From positions 1-28,256 of the forward strand of contig CAYMTU010000001.1 in NCBI GenBank assembly GCA_964393455.1: a stretch of 28,256 nucleotides of DNA, written 5' to 3'. Under the pieces are notes generated by a model that saw only the letters and a list, made by a program, of their open reading frames with translations, was not told the origin of the DNA and searched no databases. Shown piece by piece: positions 17,867 to 27,741 of the stretch. The position numbers were made by a program, and so were the translations under genes. The DNA comes from an uncultured Candidatus Saccharibacteria bacterium (GTDB lineage: Bacteria > Patescibacteriota > Saccharimonadia > Saccharimonadales > AWTP1-31). The stretch's first letter is position 1, and each line of letters opens with the position of its first letter.

Positions 17867-18631
17867 ATGCCTAAATCTACTAAAAAAGCTGATCAATATA
17901 ATGACCCAACGCATAATTATCTAAAGTACTGGGACGGTCGTGACTATGAAAATGAATCTGAAAGAATAGCCCTAAGGCGACTACTAAAAAACAAGCATTT
18001 CGCCCATGCGGCAGATATTGGTGGTGGCTACGGTAGATTATGCGTATTTTTAAAAGATTATGCCGATAAAGTAACATTGGCTGAGCCAAGTCAACAACAA
18101 TTAGATATTGGGAAAAAATTTCTAAAGAATCAAAAAGATATCGACATGGTCCTGACACAAGCCGATGATCTAAAATTCAAAGATGAATCACTCGATCTTA
18201 TAACAATGATTAGGGTAATGCACCATCTACCAGATCCGTCTGCTGAGTTTTCTGAAATTAAGCGAGTGCTTACATCTGATGGATATTTTGTACTAGAGAT
18301 TGCTAATTATTCACACGCAGTTAATCGAGTTAAGCACCTCGTTAAAGGCAAGAAGATGCCGTTAGAACCAGTAGATATTAGGTCCGAGAAAAACAAAAAA
18401 GATAGTGAAATAGCTTTCGTAAACCACAACCCTAAGACTGTCATTAAGCAGCTTGCTCATGCTGGGCTCAAAGTAGAAAAGATACTCTCTGTGTCTAACC
18501 TACGAAGTCCAGGTCTTAAAAAAGTAATTCCAAGAAGTGTAATGCTTAATTTAGAGAATATTATGCAACCTACACTCGCAAAAACTTTTTTTGGTCCAAG
18601 TACTTTTCTTCTCATCAAAAAAGCCTCCTAA
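17867..18631 (+). CDS. Class I SAM-dependent methyltransferase
   Basis: Motif I ADIGGGYGRL, motif II region TLAEPS, LKFKDESLDLITMIRVMHHL, RVLTSDGYFVLE. Confidence 0.88.
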   Translation: MPKSTKKADQYNDPTHNYLKYWDGRDYENESERIALRRLLKNKHFAHAADIGGGYGRLCVFLKDYADKVTLAEPSQQQLDIGKKFLKNQKDIDMVLTQADDLKFKDESLDLITMIRVMHHLPDPSAEFSEIKRVLTSDGYFVLEIANYSHAVNRVKHLVKGKKMPLEPVDIRSEKNKKDSEIAFVNHNPKTVIKQLAHAGLKVEKILSVSNLRSPGLKKVIPRSVMLNLENIMQPTLAKTFFGPSTFLLIKKAS

Positions 18632-18681
18632 ATTATTCTTCATAGTGGTCATGGGGTGGCTAAGGTTGCTATCATACTACA

Positions 18682-20721
18682 ATGACCAGTGAAGACTCTG
18701 TGACGACAATTAAAGGAATTGGTGACTCTACGGCTAAGCTATTTGCATTAGTTGGAATTCATACTATATCTGACCTCATTAATTACTATCCACGTGCATA
18801 TAACGATTACTCAAACATTCAAAAAATTGTCGATATCAAACCGGGACAAGTGTCTATAAAGGCAACCATCCAACAAACATCTGGAAGATACGTTCGTCGT
18901 GGTATGCATATTACTGAAGCGGTGGCTCAAGACGATAGTGGCAGTATTCGTCTAGTTTGGTTCAATCAGCCCTACAGAAGCCAGAGCATTCAAGCAGGTA
19001 GTTCTTACTATATATCTGGCAATTTTGAACTCAGTCATCAAAAATTTGCAATTATGAACCCTGCTTGTGAAAAAGAATCTGATTTTCCAATTAACACTGC
19101 TCGCATCCTACCTATATACCGAGAAACGAAGGGGCTAAAATCTTCACACATACGTAAAGTATTGAAACAAATAGCACCGTTATTGATTAATACTCCAGAG
19201 ACTCTTCCAATGTGGATTCTTGATGACCATAGGTTACTTACTAGAAATGAGGCTGTGTATGCTATACATTTTCCAGAAAATGCCGAGCAGCTTGAAAAAG
19301 CAAAACGCCGTCTTGGATTCGAAGAAGTTTTTGAGCTAACACTTGCGGCATTGATGAACAAGGCCGCCCATGCATCAGAGCATGCGCTTCAGATTCCTTT
19401 CGACAGACAACTAGCTCAGAAATTTGTAAATAATCTCCCATTTCAGCTAACCGACGATCAGAAAAGAGTTATCTGGCAAATATATCAAGATATTGAAAAG
19501 CAGCAACCTATGAATAGACTCATTGAAGGAGACGTTGGTTCGGGAAAAACGGTCGTTGCAACCATGTCTGCATTGATGGCCTTAAAGCATGGCTTTCAGG
19601 TGGCTTTTATGGCACCCACGGAGCTTTTAGCGCGTCAACATGCAGATACAATTTATAACCTAGTAAAACCATTAGGATACGAGAGTATGGTAGGTCTTTT
19701 GGTTGGTGGATTGAAGAGCCAGCAAAAGAGCTCAATTCACACTCAAATAAAGAGCGGTGAAATTCGTTTTATAGTAGGAACACACGCCCTAATCCAAGAA
19801 CATGTTGATATGCACAGATTAGGGTTCGTAATCATAGATGAACAGCACCGCTTTGGAGTTGAACAGCGTAAAAAATTACAGGCCAAAGCAGGGCACATGC
19901 CTCACGTGTTGTCTATGACCGCTACGCCAATTCCGCGTAGTCTGGCGCTGACTCTCTATGGTGAGCTAGATATTTCAATAATATCGAGTAAACCAGCCGA
20001 TAGACTACCCATAATCACTCGTATAGCATCTCCAAACTCAATTAAAGCCTTATACGAATCAGTAGATGCACAAATAGAAACCGGTAGGCAGATGTTTGTA
20101 GTCTGTCCGCTTGTGGTTGAATCTACGCATACAGAGGGTCTTAAGTCGGCTGAAGAAACATTCAAGTATTTATCGCACGGCCCGTTCAAACATAGACGAG
20201 TCGCATTACTTCATGGAAAGATGAAACCTGCCGATAAAAGTAAAGTTATGGAAGATTTCGTTGCCCATAGATACGATATTCTGGTTTCGACCACTGTTAT
20301 AGAAGTTGGGGTTGATGTCCCAAATGCAACTGTAATGATTATCCAAAATGCGGACAGGTTTGGTTTGGCGCAACTACATCAACTTCGAGGTAGAGTTGGT
20401 CGGAGCAGTCATCAAGGGTATTGCTACGGCGTCTTATCAGATTCAAAAGCCGTCAGTCGTCGACTCCAAGCATTTGAGCAATCCAATAATGGCTTTACAT
20501 TGGCCGAACTTGATCTAGAGCTTCGAGGACCAGGGGCTATATATGGTACCTACCAGCACGGTCAGCTCGATCTAAGAGTAGCTAAACTAACAGATACAAA
20601 ACTTATAGCAAATGCCAGAAGTTCAGCTCAAGCATTTATCGATAAGAATGAAAGCCTGGTACAATATACTCATCTTGCAAACCGAGTAAATGAGCTCCAA
20701 GCAGTAACCAACTTAAACTAA
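18682..20721 (+). CDS. recG: ATP-dependent DNA helicase RecG
   Basis: N-terminal wedge/OB region (WFNQPY), RLIEGDVGSGKT, MAPTELLARQH, IIDEQHRFGV, MTATPIPRSL, RFGLAQLHQLRGRVGR, DLELRGPG. Confidence 0.97.
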   Translation: MTSEDSVTTIKGIGDSTAKLFALVGIHTISDLINYYPRAYNDYSNIQKIVDIKPGQVSIKATIQQTSGRYVRRGMHITEAVAQDDSGSIRLVWFNQPYRSQSIQAGSSYYISGNFELSHQKFAIMNPACEKESDFPINTARILPIYRETKGLKSSHIRKVLKQIAPLLINTPETLPMWILDDHRLLTRNEAVYAIHFPENAEQLEKAKRRLGFEEVFELTLAALMNKAAHASEHALQIPFDRQLAQKFVNNLPFQLTDDQKRVIWQIYQDIEKQQPMNRLIEGDVGSGKTVVATMSALMALKHGFQVAFMAPTELLARQHADTIYNLVKPLGYESMVGLLVGGLKSQQKSSIHTQIKSGEIRFIVGTHALIQEHVDMHRLGFVIIDEQHRFGVEQRKKLQAKAGHMPHVLSMTATPIPRSLALTLYGELDISIISSKPADRLPIITRIASPNSIKALYESVDAQIETGRQMFVVCPLVVESTHTEGLKSAEETFKYLSHGPFKHRRVALLHGKMKPADKSKVMEDFVAHRYDILVSTTVIEVGVDVPNATVMIIQNADRFGLAQLHQLRGRVGRSSHQGYCYGVLSDSKAVSRRLQAFEQSNNGFTLAELDLELRGPGAIYGTYQHGQLDLRVAKLTDTKLIANARSSAQAFIDKNESLVQYTHLANRVNELQAVTNLN

Positions 20722-20725
20722 CATG

Positions 20726-20761
<36 letters not shown>

Positions 20762-20782
20762 CCAAGCGAAGCGAGGACTTAG

Positions 20783-21604
20783 ATGTACGCCGGTACTACT
20801 TTAACCAATAAATCTGGAAGTATCATGGGTACTCATCAAAAAATTGATAGAGTTGCTCGCAAAAACATCAGTAAACTGGTAGTTGATGATACGCTTTTTC
20901 CTAGTAGCAAGAAAATAATTCATTTTGAAGGTAAAAATGGTCCAGATGGTATAAAACGGAAGAGTCCATCAGTGAATGAGCCCTGGCATTTTTTCAATCC
21001 GTTTAATGATAGTGACAAAACGCTTGTACACCAAATCCAAGCACATTACGATTTACTCGTAAAAGAATTACAAAGTGGCAATCAAGAAAGAGTTGCTTTT
21101 GAAGCTGCCTGGCTTTCGCACGCTATAGTAGACGGACTTACACCAGCTCACCATTATCCGTACGAAGAAAAACTGAGTGAATTACGTGGTGGCGAAGGAA
21201 ATGAAACCCGAAGTAGCATTAAGCAAAAAGTACTCATTCCTGGTAGCACGCGCAGAGAGCTAGTAAAGAACAACTGGAAAATGTGGGGGCACAAAGGCTT
21301 GATCAGTACGCACGGGATGTTTGAGATGGGCGTTGCCGCTATAATTGCTCCCCTGGGATTCGCAGACAGTTTACCGACACATGAAGAAATAGATAAAGTG
21401 CTCGAAATCGGGATATCAGAATGGTTTACCCGGACAGCGAGAGAAATTGCGATCCTAGATATGTATACTCGATACTATAAGCGTGGTTGGACGACCAAAC
21501 TAACACTTGATGTACGCAATAAATTACTTCCTCAAATTATTAAAACCGTCACGCTAGCATGGTACGGAGCGTTAATTGAATCGAAAGTCATTCGAAATCT
21601 ATGA
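20783..21604 (+). CDS. Hypothetical protein with a phospholipase C / S1-P1 nuclease-like zinc-ligand pattern
   Basis: Ordered candidate ligands: HQKID, DGIK, WHF, WLSHAIVDGLTPAHH (HxxxD-x-PxH) and THGMFE (HxxxE). The spacing parallels the trinuclear-Zn PLC/P1 fold. Fold assignment is inferred. Confidence 0.55.
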   Translation: MYAGTTLTNKSGSIMGTHQKIDRVARKNISKLVVDDTLFPSSKKIIHFEGKNGPDGIKRKSPSVNEPWHFFNPFNDSDKTLVHQIQAHYDLLVKELQSGNQERVAFEAAWLSHAIVDGLTPAHHYPYEEKLSELRGGEGNETRSSIKQKVLIPGSTRRELVKNNWKMWGHKGLISTHGMFEMGVAAIIAPLGFADSLPTHEEIDKVLEIGISEWFTRTAREIAILDMYTRYYKRGWTTKLTLDVRNKLLPQIIKTVTLAWYGALIESKVIRNL

Positions 21605-22137
21605 GAATTATATCCGGTGAACTACGGGGTCGACAGTTTAATTCACCCAAAGGTCATCGCACTCATCCGATGGGTGACCGCGTACGTACAGCACTATTTA
21701 ATACACTGGGTGATATTTCGGGACTTACGATATTAGACGCTTTTGCTGGCAGTGGAGCTTTAACGTTTGAAGCTATTAGCCGTGGTGCTAGAAACGCTGT
21801 TACACTCGAGATCGACCACGATGCATATGAAGTTATCCAGCAAAACGCCAACGATTTGGGAATTGCAGATAAAATCAATGTCCAGCATATTAACGCACGC
21901 TCATGGTCATATCGCAATAACACTGAACGTTTTGATATTGTATTCTGCGATCCGCCGTACAATCAACTCCAGGAAACAATCCTTGAAAAACTAGCTAAAC
22001 ACGCACAAATTGGAGGTATTCTAGTCTATTCTATGCCACCACATGGAGATATACGCTTACCTATGGAAAAGTACGAACTCATAACTACCAAGACGTATGG
22101 CGACGCAATGCTCGCTTTTTACCGCAAATTAGCATGA
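21601..22137 (+). CDS. rsmD: RsmD-family 16S rRNA m2G966-type methyltransferase
   Basis: MRIISGELRGR, P..DRVRTALFN.L, LDAFAGSGAL.FEAISRGA, DIVFCDPPY. ATGA overlap with the upstream gene. Confidence 0.92.
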   Translation: MRIISGELRGRQFNSPKGHRTHPMGDRVRTALFNTLGDISGLTILDAFAGSGALTFEAISRGARNAVTLEIDHDAYEVIQQNANDLGIADKINVQHINARSWSYRNNTERFDIVFCDPPYNQLQETILEKLAKHAQIGGILVYSMPPHGDIRLPMEKYELITTKTYGDAMLAFYRKLA

Positions 22138-22162
22138 CAAAAACAGATAGAAGTGCTAGAAT
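22134..22162 (+). promoter_or_regulatory. Promoter for the tRNA-Leu locus, overlapping the rsmD stop
   Basis: ATGACA (22134-22139), 17 nt, TG-C-TAGAAT (-10 at 22157-22162). A second TATAAT lies at 22238-22243. Confidence 0.55.
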
Positions 22163-22210
22163 TTGACTTGTCTTCACCAATTATGTGGCTAAATGATCAC
22201 ATACAAATGC

Positions 22211-22258
22211 GCGCGAGTGGTGGTCTGCGTGAACGCATATAATCGTAGACACGCAAGC
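22211..22258 (+). repeat. Interrupted duplicate of the tRNA-Leu 5' half
   Basis: GCGCGAGTGGTGG (13/13 identical to 22311-22323), a 21-nt replacement of the D-loop AATTG, then GTAGACACGCaAGC (13/14 identical to 22329-22342). Confidence 0.8.
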
Positions 22259-22310
22259 GTGTTGTCCGAAAAGACACTAATCTAAATACAATTTGTTTGT
22301 TTAACATTAC

Positions 22311-22395
22311 GCGCGAGTGGTGGAATTGGTAGACACGCTAGCCTTAGGAGCTAGTGCCGCAAGGCGTGAAGGTTCAAGTCCTTTCTCGCGCACCA
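22311..22395 (+). tRNA. tRNA-Leu (anticodon TAG), CCA encoded
   Basis: Acceptor GCGCGAG/CTCGCGC plus ACCA, D-loop TGGAATTGGTAGAC, anticodon arm CTAGC-ctTAGga-GCTAG, long variable arm GCC-GCAA-GGC, T-arm GAAGG-TTCAAGT-CCTTT. Confidence 0.97.
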
Positions 22396-22434
22396 AATAA
22401 AATAGTCCTGTTTCATGCAGGGCTCTTTTATTTT
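22395..22434. terminator. Bidirectional-type intrinsic terminator after tRNA-Leu
   Basis: AAATAAAA..AGTCCTG-tttcatg-CAGGGCT..TTTTATTTT. Confidence 0.65.
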
Positions 22435-22445
22435 ATGACGAACAA

Positions 22446-22581
22446 GATTTGAACCTTCACGGCAGATTGCCATGGGCAATATGCGAGCGTGATTGGTCGC
22501 GTATCGAATCGTATCACAGGAGTTTACTCCGAGAAACGATGAGAGGAGGAGGCGAAGCCGATAGTCCTTCCTCGCGTACCA
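22446..22581 (+). other. tRNA-derived structured element: antisense T-arm copy, internal hairpins and a duplicated tRNA 3' end
   Basis: GATTTGAACCTTCACG is the reverse complement of tRNA 22365-22380 (15/16). AGTCCTTCCTCGCGTACCA (22563-22581) matches tRNA 22377-22395 (17/19). Internal stems: GCA-ATTGCC/GGCAAT-TGC, ATCGT/ACGAT, GGAG/CTCC and GGC-gaa-GCC. Confidence 0.8.
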
Positions 22582-22710
22582 GACGACGGAGAGTACGTTA
22601 TTATTAATTCATAGGTTCAAGAACAAATTTCGAGCGACACGGTTTTTCTACTACTAGACTAGTATTTGTAACTTGGTTTTGTAAATATCTTTAATTGCTA
22701 TACTTACTGC

Positions 22711-23394
22711 ATGACAGATAATCCTAATAATGAATTTCTCAATAATTTACCAGAACTTGATATTAGAGATGCATTGGATGAATTTGAAACAGAATTAGAA
22801 AGCATTCTACCAATACTTCCAGATTCTTTTGAAATCACTATAAGCTACATCAATTCCGATAAACCAGCTCTAGTTGATGACGGCGATATTTGGTACCACG
22901 CAATTGGTGGAAGTGCCATCACTAATGAGCACATAGATCTAACAGTCGACCAACGAATCGATTTGACTAAAACTAACCTATTAAAGCAAATAAGAGAGAC
23001 CTATTTTCATGAGAGATTTCATATTGCTAGAGGTTATAGCTTCGAAAGTAAAGGATTAACATTACTTGATGTTGCAATTGAAGAGGGTTTAGCGGTTAAA
23101 TTTGAAACAATCCATGCTGAAGCAAATCCATGGTATGGAGAATACGGTAGCAGAAAAGCAATGAAAACAACACTTAGAGAAGTTACTGAAGCAGATAATC
23201 AACAACACACCATCGACTGGGATAAATGGAAATTTTACGACCCTGAAACCGATAGACATTGGATCCTATACAGGTTGGGTACATTTATAGCAGACGAAGT
23301 CTTAATAAATAACCCTGAACTACAAATTCAAGATCTAGTTACTCTTGACCGCGATACAATTCTTAGAAAATCTAAATTACTAGAATCTACTTAA
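22711..23394 (+). CDS. DUF2268-like putative Zn-dependent protease
   Basis: TYFHERFHIARG (HExxH), then LLDVAIEEGLAVKF (EG motif) and a late YRLG. TG-C-TATACT lies 6 nt before the ATG. Confidence 0.7.
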   Translation: MTDNPNNEFLNNLPELDIRDALDEFETELESILPILPDSFEITISYINSDKPALVDDGDIWYHAIGGSAITNEHIDLTVDQRIDLTKTNLLKQIRETYFHERFHIARGYSFESKGLTLLDVAIEEGLAVKFETIHAEANPWYGEYGSRKAMKTTLREVTEADNQQHTIDWDKWKFYDPETDRHWILYRLGTFIADEVLINNPELQIQDLVTLDRDTILRKSKLLEST

Positions 23395-24055
23395 GCTTCT
23401 TCAACTCTTCATATCTAAATGCTGGAGCTACCGAATAGCAGACTGCCAGAATTGCAGATGTAATACTGCCAACAAAACCAAACACTGATATGAATGAGAT
23501 AAGTACACTTACGCCTATGACTGCCCAGACGGCACCCGAATATGGCTTTGTCAGATCAGCACTTTGTTTCATTGATTCAAAGATACCAAGCTTTTTGTCG
23601 GCCATTACATATGGGGAAAATACGTATCTTCGTATAAAGATTAATCCAGGAACAATAAATGCAATTAATCCCAAAACAACTACCGCACTTACAACTATCC
23701 CGAGGCCAATCATTTTGAAAGTATTATCTCGAGCAAATTCCCACAGAGCATTCATCGTTGGTTTATTGCCCCTAGCAACACTAAGCTGTAACTTAATTGA
23801 CATCGTGTATAAGACTATTGATACGATAAGTGCAACGGTAAATATTCCAGCACCCTGAGAACTGATAGTCGGAAAGCCTGTCGCTTCTTCAGGTACTTTT
23901 ATCTGCAAACTCAGAATAAGTTGAGCAACCAGACCAAATCCACCAACAACAATAAAAAGAAAAAGATTCTGCACTATAGCGTTATAGCTTTTAGGAAATA
24001 ACGAAAAAGCGCTAACAGGAGTATTTTTTTTAATTATCTTGTTCTTTGCTGTCAT
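23387..24055 (-). CDS. Multi-pass membrane protein of unknown function
   Basis: Four to five hydrophobic segments and a G...IFESMKQSADLTK loop typical of DUF975/GPDPase-membrane-domain-like proteins. Start uncertain (24055 or 24106). Overlaps the convergent gene's end by 8 nt. Confidence 0.7.
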   Translation of the reverse strand: MTAKNKIIKKNTPVSAFSLFPKSYNAIVQNLFLFIVVGGFGLVAQLILSLQIKVPEEATGFPTISSQGAGIFTVALIVSIVLYTMSIKLQLSVARGNKPTMNALWEFARDNTFKMIGLGIVVSAVVVLGLIAFIVPGLIFIRRYVFSPYVMADKKLGIFESMKQSADLTKPYSGAVWAVIGVSVLISFISVFGFVGSITSAILAVCYSVAPAFRYEELKKLK

Positions 24056-24134
24056 ACTATACTTATCTAGTTCCCTTAAGTCTGTATTATGAATTAGTTC
24101 TAACATTTCAGCAATAAGCTATACTAAAAGACAT

Positions 24135-25442
24135 ATGACACTTTCAACCCAACCATACAAAGGCGCCCGAGACTTCTACCCAGAAGACAAGCGCATTCAA
24201 AAATATATGTTTAACACACTTCGCCGTGTAGTAGAGCGCTACGGTTACGAAGAATACGATGCGCCCATACTAGAAAGTATCGAACTTTACCGAGCCAAAT
24301 CAGGTGAAGAGATTGTCAACGAGCAAACGTACTCTTTTAGCGACCGTGGTGGTCGTGAGGTGGTTATTCGTCCAGAAATGACACCGACTGTTAGTCGGAT
24401 GGTTGCAGCGAGACGTCAGGAACTGGGCTACCCGCTGCGATGGTATAGTATTCCAAACTTATGGCGATACGAACGTCCTCAAAAAGGTAGGCTTCGTGAG
24501 CACTGGCAGCTGAATGTAGATATATTTGGCATGAAAGATATCTCTGCTGAACATGAATTAATACTGATTACTGATTCAATCATGCGCGAATTTAATGCGA
24601 CTCGAGAGATGTACGATATCAAGCTGAATAGCCGTAAGCTCATGGATTACATAATGAAAGACTACTTAGGTCTGGACGAAGTACAAACACACACATTATC
24701 AAAACTTATTGACCGTATGCATAAAATAGAACGCTCAGCTTTTGTTGCAGGATGCGATGCGTTACTTCGTCCTTCACAGAGAGACACAGGACTCAGTCAA
24801 AAACTACTCGATATACTAGCTGTTAAGAGCATAAACGAACTACCATCGCCAGTACTTAAATCAGGTATCAGCAACGACCTAGCATCACTTATTGAATTAC
24901 TCAAAGACAGTGGAGTAACAAATGTTTCCTTTGATATTAGTATCATGAGAGGGTTTGATTACTATACAGATATCGTATTTGAAATGAACGATACAGACCC
25001 TGAAAACAATCGTGCCATGATGGGCGGTGGAAGGTACGATGGACTCGTCGGATTATTTGGTGTCGAGCCTGTACCAACAGTAGGTTTTGGATGGGGTGAT
25101 GTCACGTTACTTAATTTCTTAAAAGCGCATAACCTGCTAGAAAACTCTGTTTCAGAAACAGAAATATACGCCATCATGGTTGGCGATGTATACCCCCGCG
25201 CCCAAAAGCTTTTATCTTCACTTCGAAATGAAGGTGTTACTGTAGCCGTAGATAATACCGGTAAAAAATTAGCTAACGTCATCAAGAATGCGAGCAAAAA
25301 AAATATTCGCTACGCATTGTTCATAGGAGAAAAAGAGCTAGAAGAAGAACGATACAACTTAAAAGACCTGCAAACAAGTACCGAGGAAACGCTCAGCCCT
25401 GAACGAATTATCAGTAAAGTTCTCGATAATAGAAACAATTAA
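24135..25442 (+). CDS. hisS: Histidine--tRNA ligase
   Basis: KGARDFYPE, RPEMTPTVSR, WRYERPQKGRLREHWQLNVD, RGFDYYT, GGGRYDGL, VGFGWG, C-terminal anticodon-binding domain. Confidence 0.97.
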   Translation: MTLSTQPYKGARDFYPEDKRIQKYMFNTLRRVVERYGYEEYDAPILESIELYRAKSGEEIVNEQTYSFSDRGGREVVIRPEMTPTVSRMVAARRQELGYPLRWYSIPNLWRYERPQKGRLREHWQLNVDIFGMKDISAEHELILITDSIMREFNATREMYDIKLNSRKLMDYIMKDYLGLDEVQTHTLSKLIDRMHKIERSAFVAGCDALLRPSQRDTGLSQKLLDILAVKSINELPSPVLKSGISNDLASLIELLKDSGVTNVSFDISIMRGFDYYTDIVFEMNDTDPENNRAMMGGGRYDGLVGLFGVEPVPTVGFGWGDVTLLNFLKAHNLLENSVSETEIYAIMVGDVYPRAQKLLSSLRNEGVTVAVDNTGKKLANVIKNASKKNIRYALFIGEKELEEERYNLKDLQTSTEETLSPERIISKVLDNRNN

Positions 25443-25492
25443 CAGATAATAAGTCTCGTAAAATACGCTCATTTCTTGTATACTACTTTTCT

Positions 25493-26776
25493 ATGCAAAT
25501 AAAACTCATCCACAATACCGATACAAATGTAACCTTAAGCATCGTAGCCGACGAAGAAACGTTGGCAAAAATCAAAGATAGTACACTGCGAAAATTCAAT
25601 ACAAGCAACCTTAAGATTGCTGGTTTTCGTGCTGGAAAAGCACCTCTGGAAATTGTCGAAAAGCACGTCGATCAACAAGCATTACAGTCCGAATTTATCG
25701 ATACGGTACTTAACCATTACTACGTTCAAGCAATGACCAAAGAAAATCTCCGCGTCGTCAGTCAACCAACAGTCAACCTAAAGAAATTCGTGCCATTTTC
25801 TACATTTGAATTCGACGTGACTGTCGATGTACTTGGTGACGTAACGCTACCTGACTATACGAAAATCAAAAAAACTAAAAAGGTTGCGAGCGTATCGGCA
25901 GAACAAGTAAAAGACGTTATCGAATCGCTCCGAAAACGTCTTGCTGAAAAGAAAGATGTATCGCGAGCAGCAAAAGAAGGCGACGAAGTAACCATTGACT
26001 TTAAGGGTGTTGACGCCAAAGGGAAAGCTGTTGATGGTGCCGAAGGCAAGAGCTATCCACTACTACTGGGGAGTAATACGTTCATTCCCGGTTTTGAGCC
26101 AAAAGTTGTAGGTATAAAAAAGGGCGAAGAGAAAACGTTTACGATTCCATTTCCAAAAGATTACGCTGTCGCAGCGCTTCAAGGTAAAAAAGTAACCTTC
26201 ACCATAACTGCTCAAAATATCCAAGAATTAACTCTACCCAAAGCCGATGACGAATTTGCTTCTAAAGCCGGTCCGTTCAATACGCTTAAAGACCTAAAAG
26301 AAGATATTAAGAAGCAATTAACGCTTGAGCAGCAAAATGAACTTGACCGTGAATTCGAGACAGAAATTTTGCGAGAAATTGCCAAGAAAGCAAAAGTAGC
26401 CATTCCTGACAGTGTTATTGACGAGCAGGTTTTGCGTTCAGAAGAAGATGAAAAACGTAATCTCACCTATCGTGGTATAACGTGGAAAGAGCATCTGGAA
26501 TCGGAAGGTGTAACTGAAGAAGAACATCGTAAGCGCAATCGTCCAGACGCTGAAGAGCAGGTAAAAATAGGTATTATACTTGGAGCAATTGGCGATAAAG
26601 AAAATATCACCGTAACTCCTGAGGAGCTAGAAATTAGAATGCAGTTACTGAAGGGTCAGTACACAGACCCTGCAATGCAATCCGAACTCGACAAGCCTGA
26701 GGGACGTCAAGATATTGCTGCGAGGTTACGTAGTGAAAAAATTATTGCTAAACTCACTAGTTTCGCTTCATCGTAG
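25493..26776 (+). CDS. tig: Trigger factor
   Basis: Ribosome-binding signature IAGFRAGKAP, FKBP domain (GDEVTIDFKG, LGSNTFIPGFE..VVG), C-terminal chaperone domain. Confidence 0.95.
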   Translation: MQIKLIHNTDTNVTLSIVADEETLAKIKDSTLRKFNTSNLKIAGFRAGKAPLEIVEKHVDQQALQSEFIDTVLNHYYVQAMTKENLRVVSQPTVNLKKFVPFSTFEFDVTVDVLGDVTLPDYTKIKKTKKVASVSAEQVKDVIESLRKRLAEKKDVSRAAKEGDEVTIDFKGVDAKGKAVDGAEGKSYPLLLGSNTFIPGFEPKVVGIKKGEEKTFTIPFPKDYAVAALQGKKVTFTITAQNIQELTLPKADDEFASKAGPFNTLKDLKEDIKKQLTLEQQNELDREFETEILREIAKKAKVAIPDSVIDEQVLRSEEDEKRNLTYRGITWKEHLESEGVTEEEHRKRNRPDAEEQVKIGIILGAIGDKENITVTPEELEIRMQLLKGQYTDPAMQSELDKPEGRQDIAARLRSEKIIAKLTSFASS

Positions 26777-26793
26777 ATCGATACATACTATAT

Positions 26794-27090
26794 ATGAAAC
26801 AACACCCAGAAATTGAAGATTGCTTGATTATTGACCTCGTCGACAAGGATGTTATTCGAAACGCGCTAACTGAAGCGGCAGAAGTAATAGAAATACATCG
26901 CTGTAGCTATGAAGAGTTAATTCATGTGCTCAACGATAAACCTGAAACAGATTTCCCTATTCAAATGAAGGGCATAGATGCCAAGTATATTCTTGGAGCA
27001 TTAATGAATAGTTCAGAGAACAATGGTAACGATAGTCCGGCGGGTTTACTAATCGAGGAATTCAAAATAGACGGTCCCTGCCGACATTAA
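26794..27090 (+). CDS. Hypothetical acidic 98-aa protein
   Basis: Fills the tig-clpP gap on the same strand with no competing ORF. No recognisable motif. Confidence 0.6.
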   Translation: MKQHPEIEDCLIIDLVDKDVIRNALTEAAEVIEIHRCSYEELIHVLNDKPETDFPIQMKGIDAKYILGALMNSSENNGNDSPAGLLIEEFKIDGPCRH

Positions 27091-27093
27091 TAG

Positions 27094-27131
27094 TTAGCAC
27101 TCTTGACTTTAGAGTGCCAGTTTTCTACAAT
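27094..27131 (+). promoter_or_regulatory. CIRCE operator overlapping the clpP promoter
   Basis: TTAGCACTC-N9(ttgacttta)-GAGTGCCAG (27094-27120). -35 TTGACT (27103-27108), 17 nt, -10 TACAAT (27126-27131). Confidence 0.88.
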
Positions 27132-27138
27132 TAATCGT

Positions 27139-27741
27139 ATGAACAAAATAACCAACTCCACACTCATCCCCACCGTCATTGAATCGGATGGCCGAATTGA
27201 ACGTGCCTATGATATCTATAGTCGACTCTTAAAAGATCGCATTATTTTCTTAGGGGATGCTGTGAACGAGCACACTGCCAATTTAGTTGTTGCACAGCTT
27301 TTATTTCTTCATGCAGAAGATCCGAAAAAAGATATCAACTTCTATATCAACAGTCCGGGTGGAAGTGTTTATGATGCACTGGCCATTTACGACACCATGC
27401 AGTACATTGCCAATGACATTCAAACGGTTGGAATCGGCATCCAAGCATCAGCTGCAGCATTTCTACTTAGCTCTGGAACCAAAGGTAAGCGCGTTATTTT
27501 ACCTAACTCAACAGTCATGGTTCACCAACCGAGCAGCGGTACACGCGGAAAGGTCACCGATATGGAAATCGACCTAAAAGAGTCATTACGCATAAAGCAA
27601 CAGCTCAACGAGATAATGGCAAAGAATACTGGACAAACAGTCAAACAAATCCAAAACGACATGGAGCGAGATTACTGGATGACTGCCCAAGAAGCTAAAA
27701 AGTACGGCATCGTCGATAAAATCATAGCTAGTCTCAAATAA
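27139..27741 (+). CDS. clpP: ATP-dependent Clp protease proteolytic subunit
   Basis: [25 protein letters not shown], catalytic S (QASAAAFLL), H (VMVHQP) and D (MERDYWM). Start at ATG 27139; the TTG 27103 start in the ORF track is the -35 box. Confidence 0.97.

Follow-up and report, generated by a model that had tools for sequence, protein, structure and literature searches.

In Escherichia coli the tRNA genes at tyrT-tyrV are trailed by the 178-bp repeats of the RtT RNA (rttR; RF00391), and the parts of these repeats follow the tRNA in the same order as in the cassette described here. Read directly from K-12, each unit has first inverted copies of the T-stem 3' strand and acceptor and of the T-stem 5' strand; the latter strand then recurs in forward orientation and runs into the first bases of the T-loop. 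A hairpin-rich insert, a hairpin of the GCGAAGC type and the tRNA tail with CCA, copied over 19 nt, complete the unit, and units are also found in tandem. To our knowledge the RtT repeats have been without an explanation since the 1970s. In the window, by which we mean the whole 28,256-nt stretch of Saccharibacteria DNA that was analysed, a tRNA-Leu gene is followed by this same layout, i.e., inverted and forward T-arm pieces and a terminal copy of the last ~19 nt of the tRNA. RtT units differ from the cassette in that no intrinsic terminator follows the tRNA and in that their inner folds are unlike. With E allowed up to 10, the RF00391 covariance model (gathering cut-off 45 bits) matched neither the window region nor any other part of the genome, and the covariance model R1, built from cassettes (see below), gave no match on the E. 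coli tyrT locus. Mini-hairpins of the GCGAAGC type are located directly before the tail copy both in Saccharibacteria cassettes (22551-22559 in the window) and in RtT (locus L069). GCGAAGC is an unusually stable DNA hairpin, and this stability would hint that the fold may act as single-stranded DNA.

Several other classes of repeated or mobile DNA resemble the cassette in part. Integration in tRNA genes reportedly takes place at T-loop and 3'-end sublocations, and the attL/attR repeats found in tRNA genes share with the cassette an intact tRNA and a displaced direct copy of its tail from the T-loop onwards. Unlike such repeats, the cassette has ~190 bp between the two tails, no recombinase, a conserved fold present in multiple copies, and an inverted copy of the T-arm. 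CIMEs and MITE-like elements are also non-autonomous, short, multi-copy and site-restricted, and accrete in tandem, but CIMEs are kb-sized and flanked by the att sites of a known partner element; no such partner could be shown for the cassette, and the MITE hallmarks of terminal inverted repeats and a short target-site duplication were not found at the window unit, where the duplicated stretch is the 19-21 nt tail of the tRNA. REP/BIME/REPIN sequences with their RAYT are similar in being short, extragenic and rich in hairpins, in their location at gene ends, in numbering dozens per small genome and in their stable GNA-loop mini-hairpins, whereas the cassettes are tied to tRNA tails, carry copies of the host tRNA and are unrelated to the RAYT palindromes of their own genome. 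The large serine recombinase elements of Patescibacteria have the tRNA 3' end as target and the host genomes in common with the cassettes. They differ in encoding a recombinase of 550-620 aa, in being 3.5-8 kb long, in having their tRNA junction at the final 6-10 nt and in having the cassettes outside. No description of RtT-like or tRNA-trailing elements was found in the literature on Patescibacteria. On balance, we take positions 22434-22581, together with the terminator preceding them, to be a non-autonomous duplicating insertion cassette of "type D" within a tRNA-trailing family of Saccharimonadales.

The tRNA-Leu(TAG) locus and its cassette

The window encodes, in this order, RecG, a conserved hypothetical protein and RsmD (21601-22137) and, after a gap of 573 nt, a DUF2268-like protein (22711-23394), a membrane protein, HisRS, trigger factor and ClpP. 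The gap contains an intact tRNA-Leu gene with anticodon TAG (22311-22395; ARAGORN; Rfam tRNA 58.7 bits), which lies on the forward strand, as do the promoter-like site, the terminator, the parts of the cassette and the upstream tRNA copy described below, and which has a 100% identical counterpart in several relatives. A promoter-like site (ATGACA, 17 nt, TAGAAT with TG) past the rsmD stop codon, at 22134-22162, was called from a consensus scan alone (10/12 matches). The tRNA is followed by an intrinsic terminator of A-tract, hairpin and T-tract (22395-22433), whose terminator-like hairpin (22404-22424) lies inside a longer inverted repeat and about whose loop a near-palindrome of 97 nt (22365-22461) is centred. 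The gene order hyp273-rsmD-tRNA-Leu(TAG) is conserved in relatives, in which the tRNA is usually found 12-55 nt past rsmD. When the gap was compared with 60 relatives, alignment was confined to the tRNA itself, and in several of these genomes pieces of tRNA-Leu flank the tRNA-Leu gene. No recombinase gene or fragment was found among the window genes from 17867 to 27741 (ORFs, Pfam). The absence of an integrase noted in the first-pass annotation holds for the window; it does not hold for the genome, which has three large serine recombinase genes at other tRNAs.

The tRNA-Leu repeats listed in that annotation were all recovered at their coordinates by a repeat search, and in a 745-nt stretch the single tRNA copies had BLAST E-values of 0.001, 0.001, 0.001 and 0.016. 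Contigs from a DNA run of a separate study (X8) are identical to the window over 21961-22340, 22368-22569 and 22540-22855; as they show no differences, the arrangement of repeats is not an artefact of assembly. The runs that contain window DNA are from wastewater and activated sludge. Three RNA-labelled runs of low share, compared with 21600-23400, gave contigs that match the tRNA (from many organisms), rsmD and the downstream gene; the cassette was matched by none of them. A contig from an activated-sludge RNA library equals 22951-23203, inside the DUF2268-like gene, with zero differences, and may represent carried-over DNA.

The cassette starts with an inverted copy of the 3' part of the tRNA (22434-22461). 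The acceptor/T-stem part of this copy (22434-22445) is worn, while the T-loop and T-stem 5' strand (22446-22461) is complementary to the tRNA (22365-22380) at 15/16 nt (94%); in other genomes this inverted T-arm is located 46-54 nt past the end of the tRNA. Next is an apical hairpin (22462-22486; ATTGCC at 22466-22471, loop ATG, GGCAAT at 22475-22480), which in the folds separates the inverted from the forward T-stem strands and which has the same position in sister copies. It is followed by GCGTGATTGGTCG at 22487-22499, a worn forward copy that covers the T-stem 5' strand and the first T-loop bases, where the tRNA has GCGTGAAGGTTCA. This forward copy (T-stem plus GGTTCG) is recognisable by position and partial identity only, and predicted folds pair the stretch with 22457-22461. 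The conserved folded core (22500-22545; match to model R1, pattern match at 22514-22535) is part of a match that begins 89 nt past the tRNA-Leu end. Helix P1 (22508-22512 with 22536-22540), the TC/GA pairs (22514-22515 with 22533-22534) and helix P2 (GGAG at 22519-22522 with CTCC at 22527-22530, loop TTTA) are intact, and the invariant motifs TCACA and GAGAA are retained. With the outer helix P0 half lost and the forward T-stem strand degenerate, the window copy is nevertheless a worn one. The mini-hairpin GGCGAAGCC (22551-22559) stands directly 5' of the tail copy, likewise in sister copies, and the cassette ends with a forward copy of the tRNA tail (22563-22581), comprising the last T-loop bases, the T-stem 3' strand, the acceptor 3' strand and ACCA. 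This tail copy agrees with 22377-22395 of the tRNA at 17/19 positions, ACCA included. An extra 9-nt forward piece of the T-loop (AGGTTCAAG) at 22613-22621, 32 nt past the tail copy, may be what is left of a further tandem unit that has eroded.

The insert of sister copies is found between GGTTCG and (A/G)TCC, i.e., inside the T-loop of the copied T-arm; in type D the core, with its three stacked helices, occupies the place of this T-loop. In the family layout the forward T-stem 5' strand precedes the core, and its equivalent in the window is the worn 22487-22499. The pairing of GGAGG (22545-22549) with CCTTC (22566-22570), previously read as a T-stem kept by compensatory changes, is possible, but GGAGG is part of a purine-rich linker. 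As the linkers of sister copies do not follow the T-stem of their tRNA, the changes cannot be called compensatory on this evidence.

A multi-copy family behind tRNA genes of Saccharimonadales

Far from being unique to this locus, the arrangement belongs to a family with many copies in Saccharimonadales. The pattern of a T-loop, 55-80 nt and an inverted T-loop was found at well over 150 places, spread over 113 genomes out of 401 from the order, compared to 1 place in the reversed control. The count takes in one unpublished genome (G320), which enters no other result given here. A convergent tRNA gene was rejected as the source of the inverted T-arm, since ARAGORN reported a single tRNA at 27 of 30 loci, none at 3 and a convergent pair at no locus. 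In the 27 fetched loci that were read, the layout recurs behind tRNA-Leu (five anticodons), tRNA-Pro and tRNA-Lys. After the tRNA come a terminator and an inverted copy of its 3' part that is worn in places. A forward T-stem 5' strand leads into a structured insert, of which there are several types, and the unit closes with the tail of the same tRNA in forward orientation, often with a second terminator behind it.

Inserts with a core of the window type are present behind five tRNAs of the window's own genome, and the order shared by such cores is stem, TCRCA, 4-bp hairpin with YTTR loop, GAGAA, stem. A search pattern that constrained the unpaired motifs only, and left the pairs free, found the core at 97 places in 60/251 genomes of the order, with 3 matches in the control. 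Among the matches in fetched loci, 22/31 are located 58-119 nt past a tRNA on the same strand, behind 14 tRNA species, and these 22 cassettes mostly end in an exact copy of 8-19 nt of the host tRNA tail. When the tail copies of 22 sister cassettes were compared with their own tRNA, a median of 12.5/16 nt was exact, against 5 (maximum 8) for other tRNAs. The flanking copies hence follow each host tRNA, a co-variation for which the first-pass annotation had proposed a test.

The covariance model R1 was made by aligning 26 copies taken from other genomes, excluding the window. It gave one match only in the window, at 22484-22564 (41.9 bits, E 1.2e-8), and 21 matches in the 0.89-Mb genome to which the window belongs. 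Seven of these lie 55-89 nt past a complete tRNA, one is a tandem second copy 240 nt past tRNA-Val(TAC), and another 12 are no more than 280 nt away from the end of a contig, in some cases (on contigs C27, C5 and C9) beside cut tRNA tails. A single genome of this small size accordingly holds no fewer than 21 copies of one covarying fold, which is tied to tRNA tails and has no name in the databases. Three helices are supported by the alignment: 86% of the cells are paired, compared to 32-45% with slid partners, changes on both sides are seen in 84 cells, compared to 7-26, and compensatory change is found at 12 of the 15 core pairs. This strong covariation implies selection on the fold, which is compatible with a useful RNA as well. 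On its own the cassette folds modestly better than shuffled sequences (z -2.1 as RNA, -3.4 as DNA). Among the features by which type D is recognised, the window copy has the core fold at a distance of 55-120 nt from a same-strand tRNA with a terminator in between, the inverted T-arm and the tail copy, its forward T-stem strand being traceable by position and partial identity, and it is a member of the family.

Searches of Rfam, with E limits of 10 for the window region and 1 for 14 sister loci, returned tRNAs and chance matches only. In agreement with the suggestion of an uncharacterised, non-autonomous element that targets tRNAs, the unit recurs behind many tRNAs, has a covarying inner fold and is matched by no described RNA family. 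With R1 the type D core was not found in 144 genomes from other orders of the phylum, a search in which stricter filters may have lost weak matches. The cassettes are also of practical concern: they break assemblies at tRNA genes, resemble integration scars to programs that find islands, and contain pseudo-tRNA pieces that can mislead annotation.

Turnover and candidate mobilising enzymes

The distribution of the cassettes is patchy and changes fast. At the orthologous tRNA-Leu(TAG), R1 gave no match in 19 relatives, the same genus included, and a genome of the same genus has only an inverted/forward T-stem remnant there. A tail copy is present at just 4 of 36 further rsmD-tRNA-Leu sites, and the type of insert at tRNA-Leu(TAG) varies between genomes. 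In G001, of the same genus, the DNA 3' of the tRNA is unlike that of the window, so that the genus offers no empty-site comparison for the window. At tRNA-Lys in one genus, two genomes carry type D and a third carries two tandem type B units; in this comparison the upstream flank is 94% identical and homology stops exactly at CCA. A pair of filled and empty sites with both flanks conserved was not found, and the boundaries of insertion are for this reason putative. Tandem arrays of cassettes occur, as do gene-sized pieces between two cassettes, and such arrays, together with the contig breaks at copies, fit with repeated, unstable DNA. Behind tRNA-Lys in G011 (L073, 1390-2100) ~350 nt are found between two near-identical cassettes, like bracketed cargo, and the start of this piece is similar to the start of the DUF2268-like gene of the window.

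No enzyme was found to be linked to the cassettes. The genome has one XerC/D-like tyrosine recombinase, and its three large serine recombinase genes have 3' ends that abut tRNA-Pro(GGG), tRNA-Leu(TAA) (contig C22) and tRNA-Glu(TTC) (contig C56). Homologues of the large serine recombinases were found in 119/251 genomes, and 14 of the 20 loci examined abut a tRNA. The gene at tRNA-Pro(GGG) (L111, 325-2049; positions 2461-4185 of contig C20 in G000) encodes a recombinase of 556 aa and is part of a 3.5-kb element whose far end is at 5860-6045 of C20. Its frame, on the opposite strand, reaches the tRNA tail and, according to the protein match, extends slightly into it. Beyond this element a type B cassette lies beside a 21-nt tail copy, and at this and four other elements a short remnant of the tail and a hairpin/terminator come before a complete cassette, which argues that the recombinase elements entered tRNAs that already carried cassettes. 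Large serine recombinases were rejected as mobiliser of the cassettes, as the cassettes beyond the element ends look like earlier residents. A transposase of the RAYT/HUH kind was also considered. The sole Y1 transposase-like gene of the genome, a RAYT-like frame of 207 aa between ruvA-side genes and ruvC (L108; positions 2200-3000 of contig C74 in G000), was rejected since it has its own, different palindromes. It is flanked by palindrome copies of the form TTCCAAGGTGSCACCTTGGAA, with which it likely makes up a REP/RAYT pair unrelated to the tRNA cassettes.

Origin of the cassette and the upstream tRNA-Leu copy

In the reading that we prefer, the cassette either is an insertion element of the non-autonomous kind or arose through an insertion process that duplicates sequence; it would have entered the tRNA-Leu gene at the T-loop or at the 3' end. 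The insertion would have supplied a fresh tail and terminator, by which tRNA-Leu would have stayed whole, and the older tail would be the one left at 22563-22581, having gained two transitions since. A simple cut-and-paste element could not transfer host-specific pieces between tRNAs, and the host-specific inverted and forward T-arm pieces consequently favour a copying mechanism. One conceivable route is synthesis on single-stranded DNA or RNA that is primed by a hairpin or switches template. It is tempting to speculate further, although we put this forward as a tentative possibility, that the cassettes represent undescribed elements without protein that colonise tRNA loops and duplicate the tRNA both ways, or alternatively an RNA with a CCA end that mimics the top half of a tRNA and has a role in the cell. 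Colonisation would concern the T-loop and, among some relatives, the D-loop as well, and the RtT of E. coli would be a remote case of the phenomenon. The cassettes imply either an unknown movement of DNA without genes or an unknown class of tRNA-linked small RNA in the ultra-small Saccharibacteria, and the layout that they have in common with RtT provides a comparative handle on the RtT puzzle.

The main rival is an RNA of the RtT kind that is useful to the host; it would be a selected small RNA, serving as a regulator, decoy or processing aid, and would not be spread by insertion. It would be transcribed with the tRNA or alone, form a CCA-ended rod with an outer end resembling an acceptor/T-arm minihelix, and be cut out by the enzymes that process tRNA. 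The covariation of the core would be accounted for in this way, as would the ACCA of the tail copy, its pairing with the inverted copy in folds and the match in part order with the units at tyrT/tyrV. However, a strong terminator separates the tRNA from the cassette, the cassettes are patchy within a genus and their types are swapped at one and the same tRNA, many copies are worn or truncated, and neither sequence nor structure matches RF00391 in either direction, all of which makes a host-selected RNA unlikely. Less likely again is a leftover of site-specific integration, either as the attR-type scar of a lost tRNA-Leu element or as att-like sites retained for recombinases. Integration in tRNA genes classically leaves a direct repeat of the tail that runs from the T-loop to CCA, the three recombinase genes of the genome and 14 of 20 related loci abut tRNA, and cassettes are found at the far side of the recombinase elements. 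On the other hand, what lies between the two tails is a fold conserved across 14 tRNA species and not random debris, the distal junctions of the recombinases keep ~6-10 nt of the tail and are followed by an independent, complete cassette, and the window is without a recombinase gene or fragment. We also agree with the earlier argument that a plain attR duplication leaves the antisense arm unexplained.

The first-pass annotation had in addition suggested a switch in tRNA maturation, in which the antisense arm of a read-through transcript would sequester the T-arm and the distal tail would pair with the 5' acceptor, giving an enlarged RNA with a CCA end. The minimum-energy fold of 22311-22581 (-110.3 kcal/mol, z -6.4) does contain exactly these pairings, but this is a trivial outcome, because the repeats directly dictate them. 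The terminator precedes the antisense arm, the inverted piece of several subtypes is a fixed cassette sequence that mismatches the host acceptor, and in most relatives the same tRNA functions without a cassette, so a predicted switch of this kind appears very improbable.

Upstream of the tRNA the repeat search revealed a decayed tRNA-Leu copy with a loop insert (22211-22277). Positions 1-13 of the tRNA correspond to 22211-22223 (14/14 matches over 22210-22223) and positions 19-32 to 22245-22258 (13/14), and what follows is left over from an eroded T-arm. A 21-nt insert (22224-22244) that contains TATAAT and can form a small hairpin takes the place of the D-loop, a deletion between two CGC repeats has removed the anticodon arm, and the 3' acceptor strand is absent. 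On the preferred reading the copy is debris from an earlier, similar event, i.e., a second tRNA-Leu copy that carried a loop insert and decayed. Upstream copies are rare, being present at 2 of 36 further rsmD-tRNA-Leu sites, and comparable ones were found in the loci L023, L062 and L019 of relatives; in L019 an old tRNA-Leu (positions 1-25 and 33-85, with a different acceptor) encloses a complete new tRNA. In L187 (1490-1860) a whole copy of tRNA-Leu(TAG) carries a ~115-nt insert in the D-loop and a ~86-nt type B insert in the T-loop, both structured, and is followed by an inverted T piece and then the intact tRNA. Inserts can thus occupy both elbow loops, and the two inserts of L187 begin with an identical hairpin-plus-GCAAG motif. 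A single contig from a sludge metagenome fuses 22164 to 22311, with 30 nt on its shorter side, and thereby omits the 146 nt with the upstream copy; it possibly derives from a co-occurring strain that lacks these 146 nt and has the ancestral arrangement.
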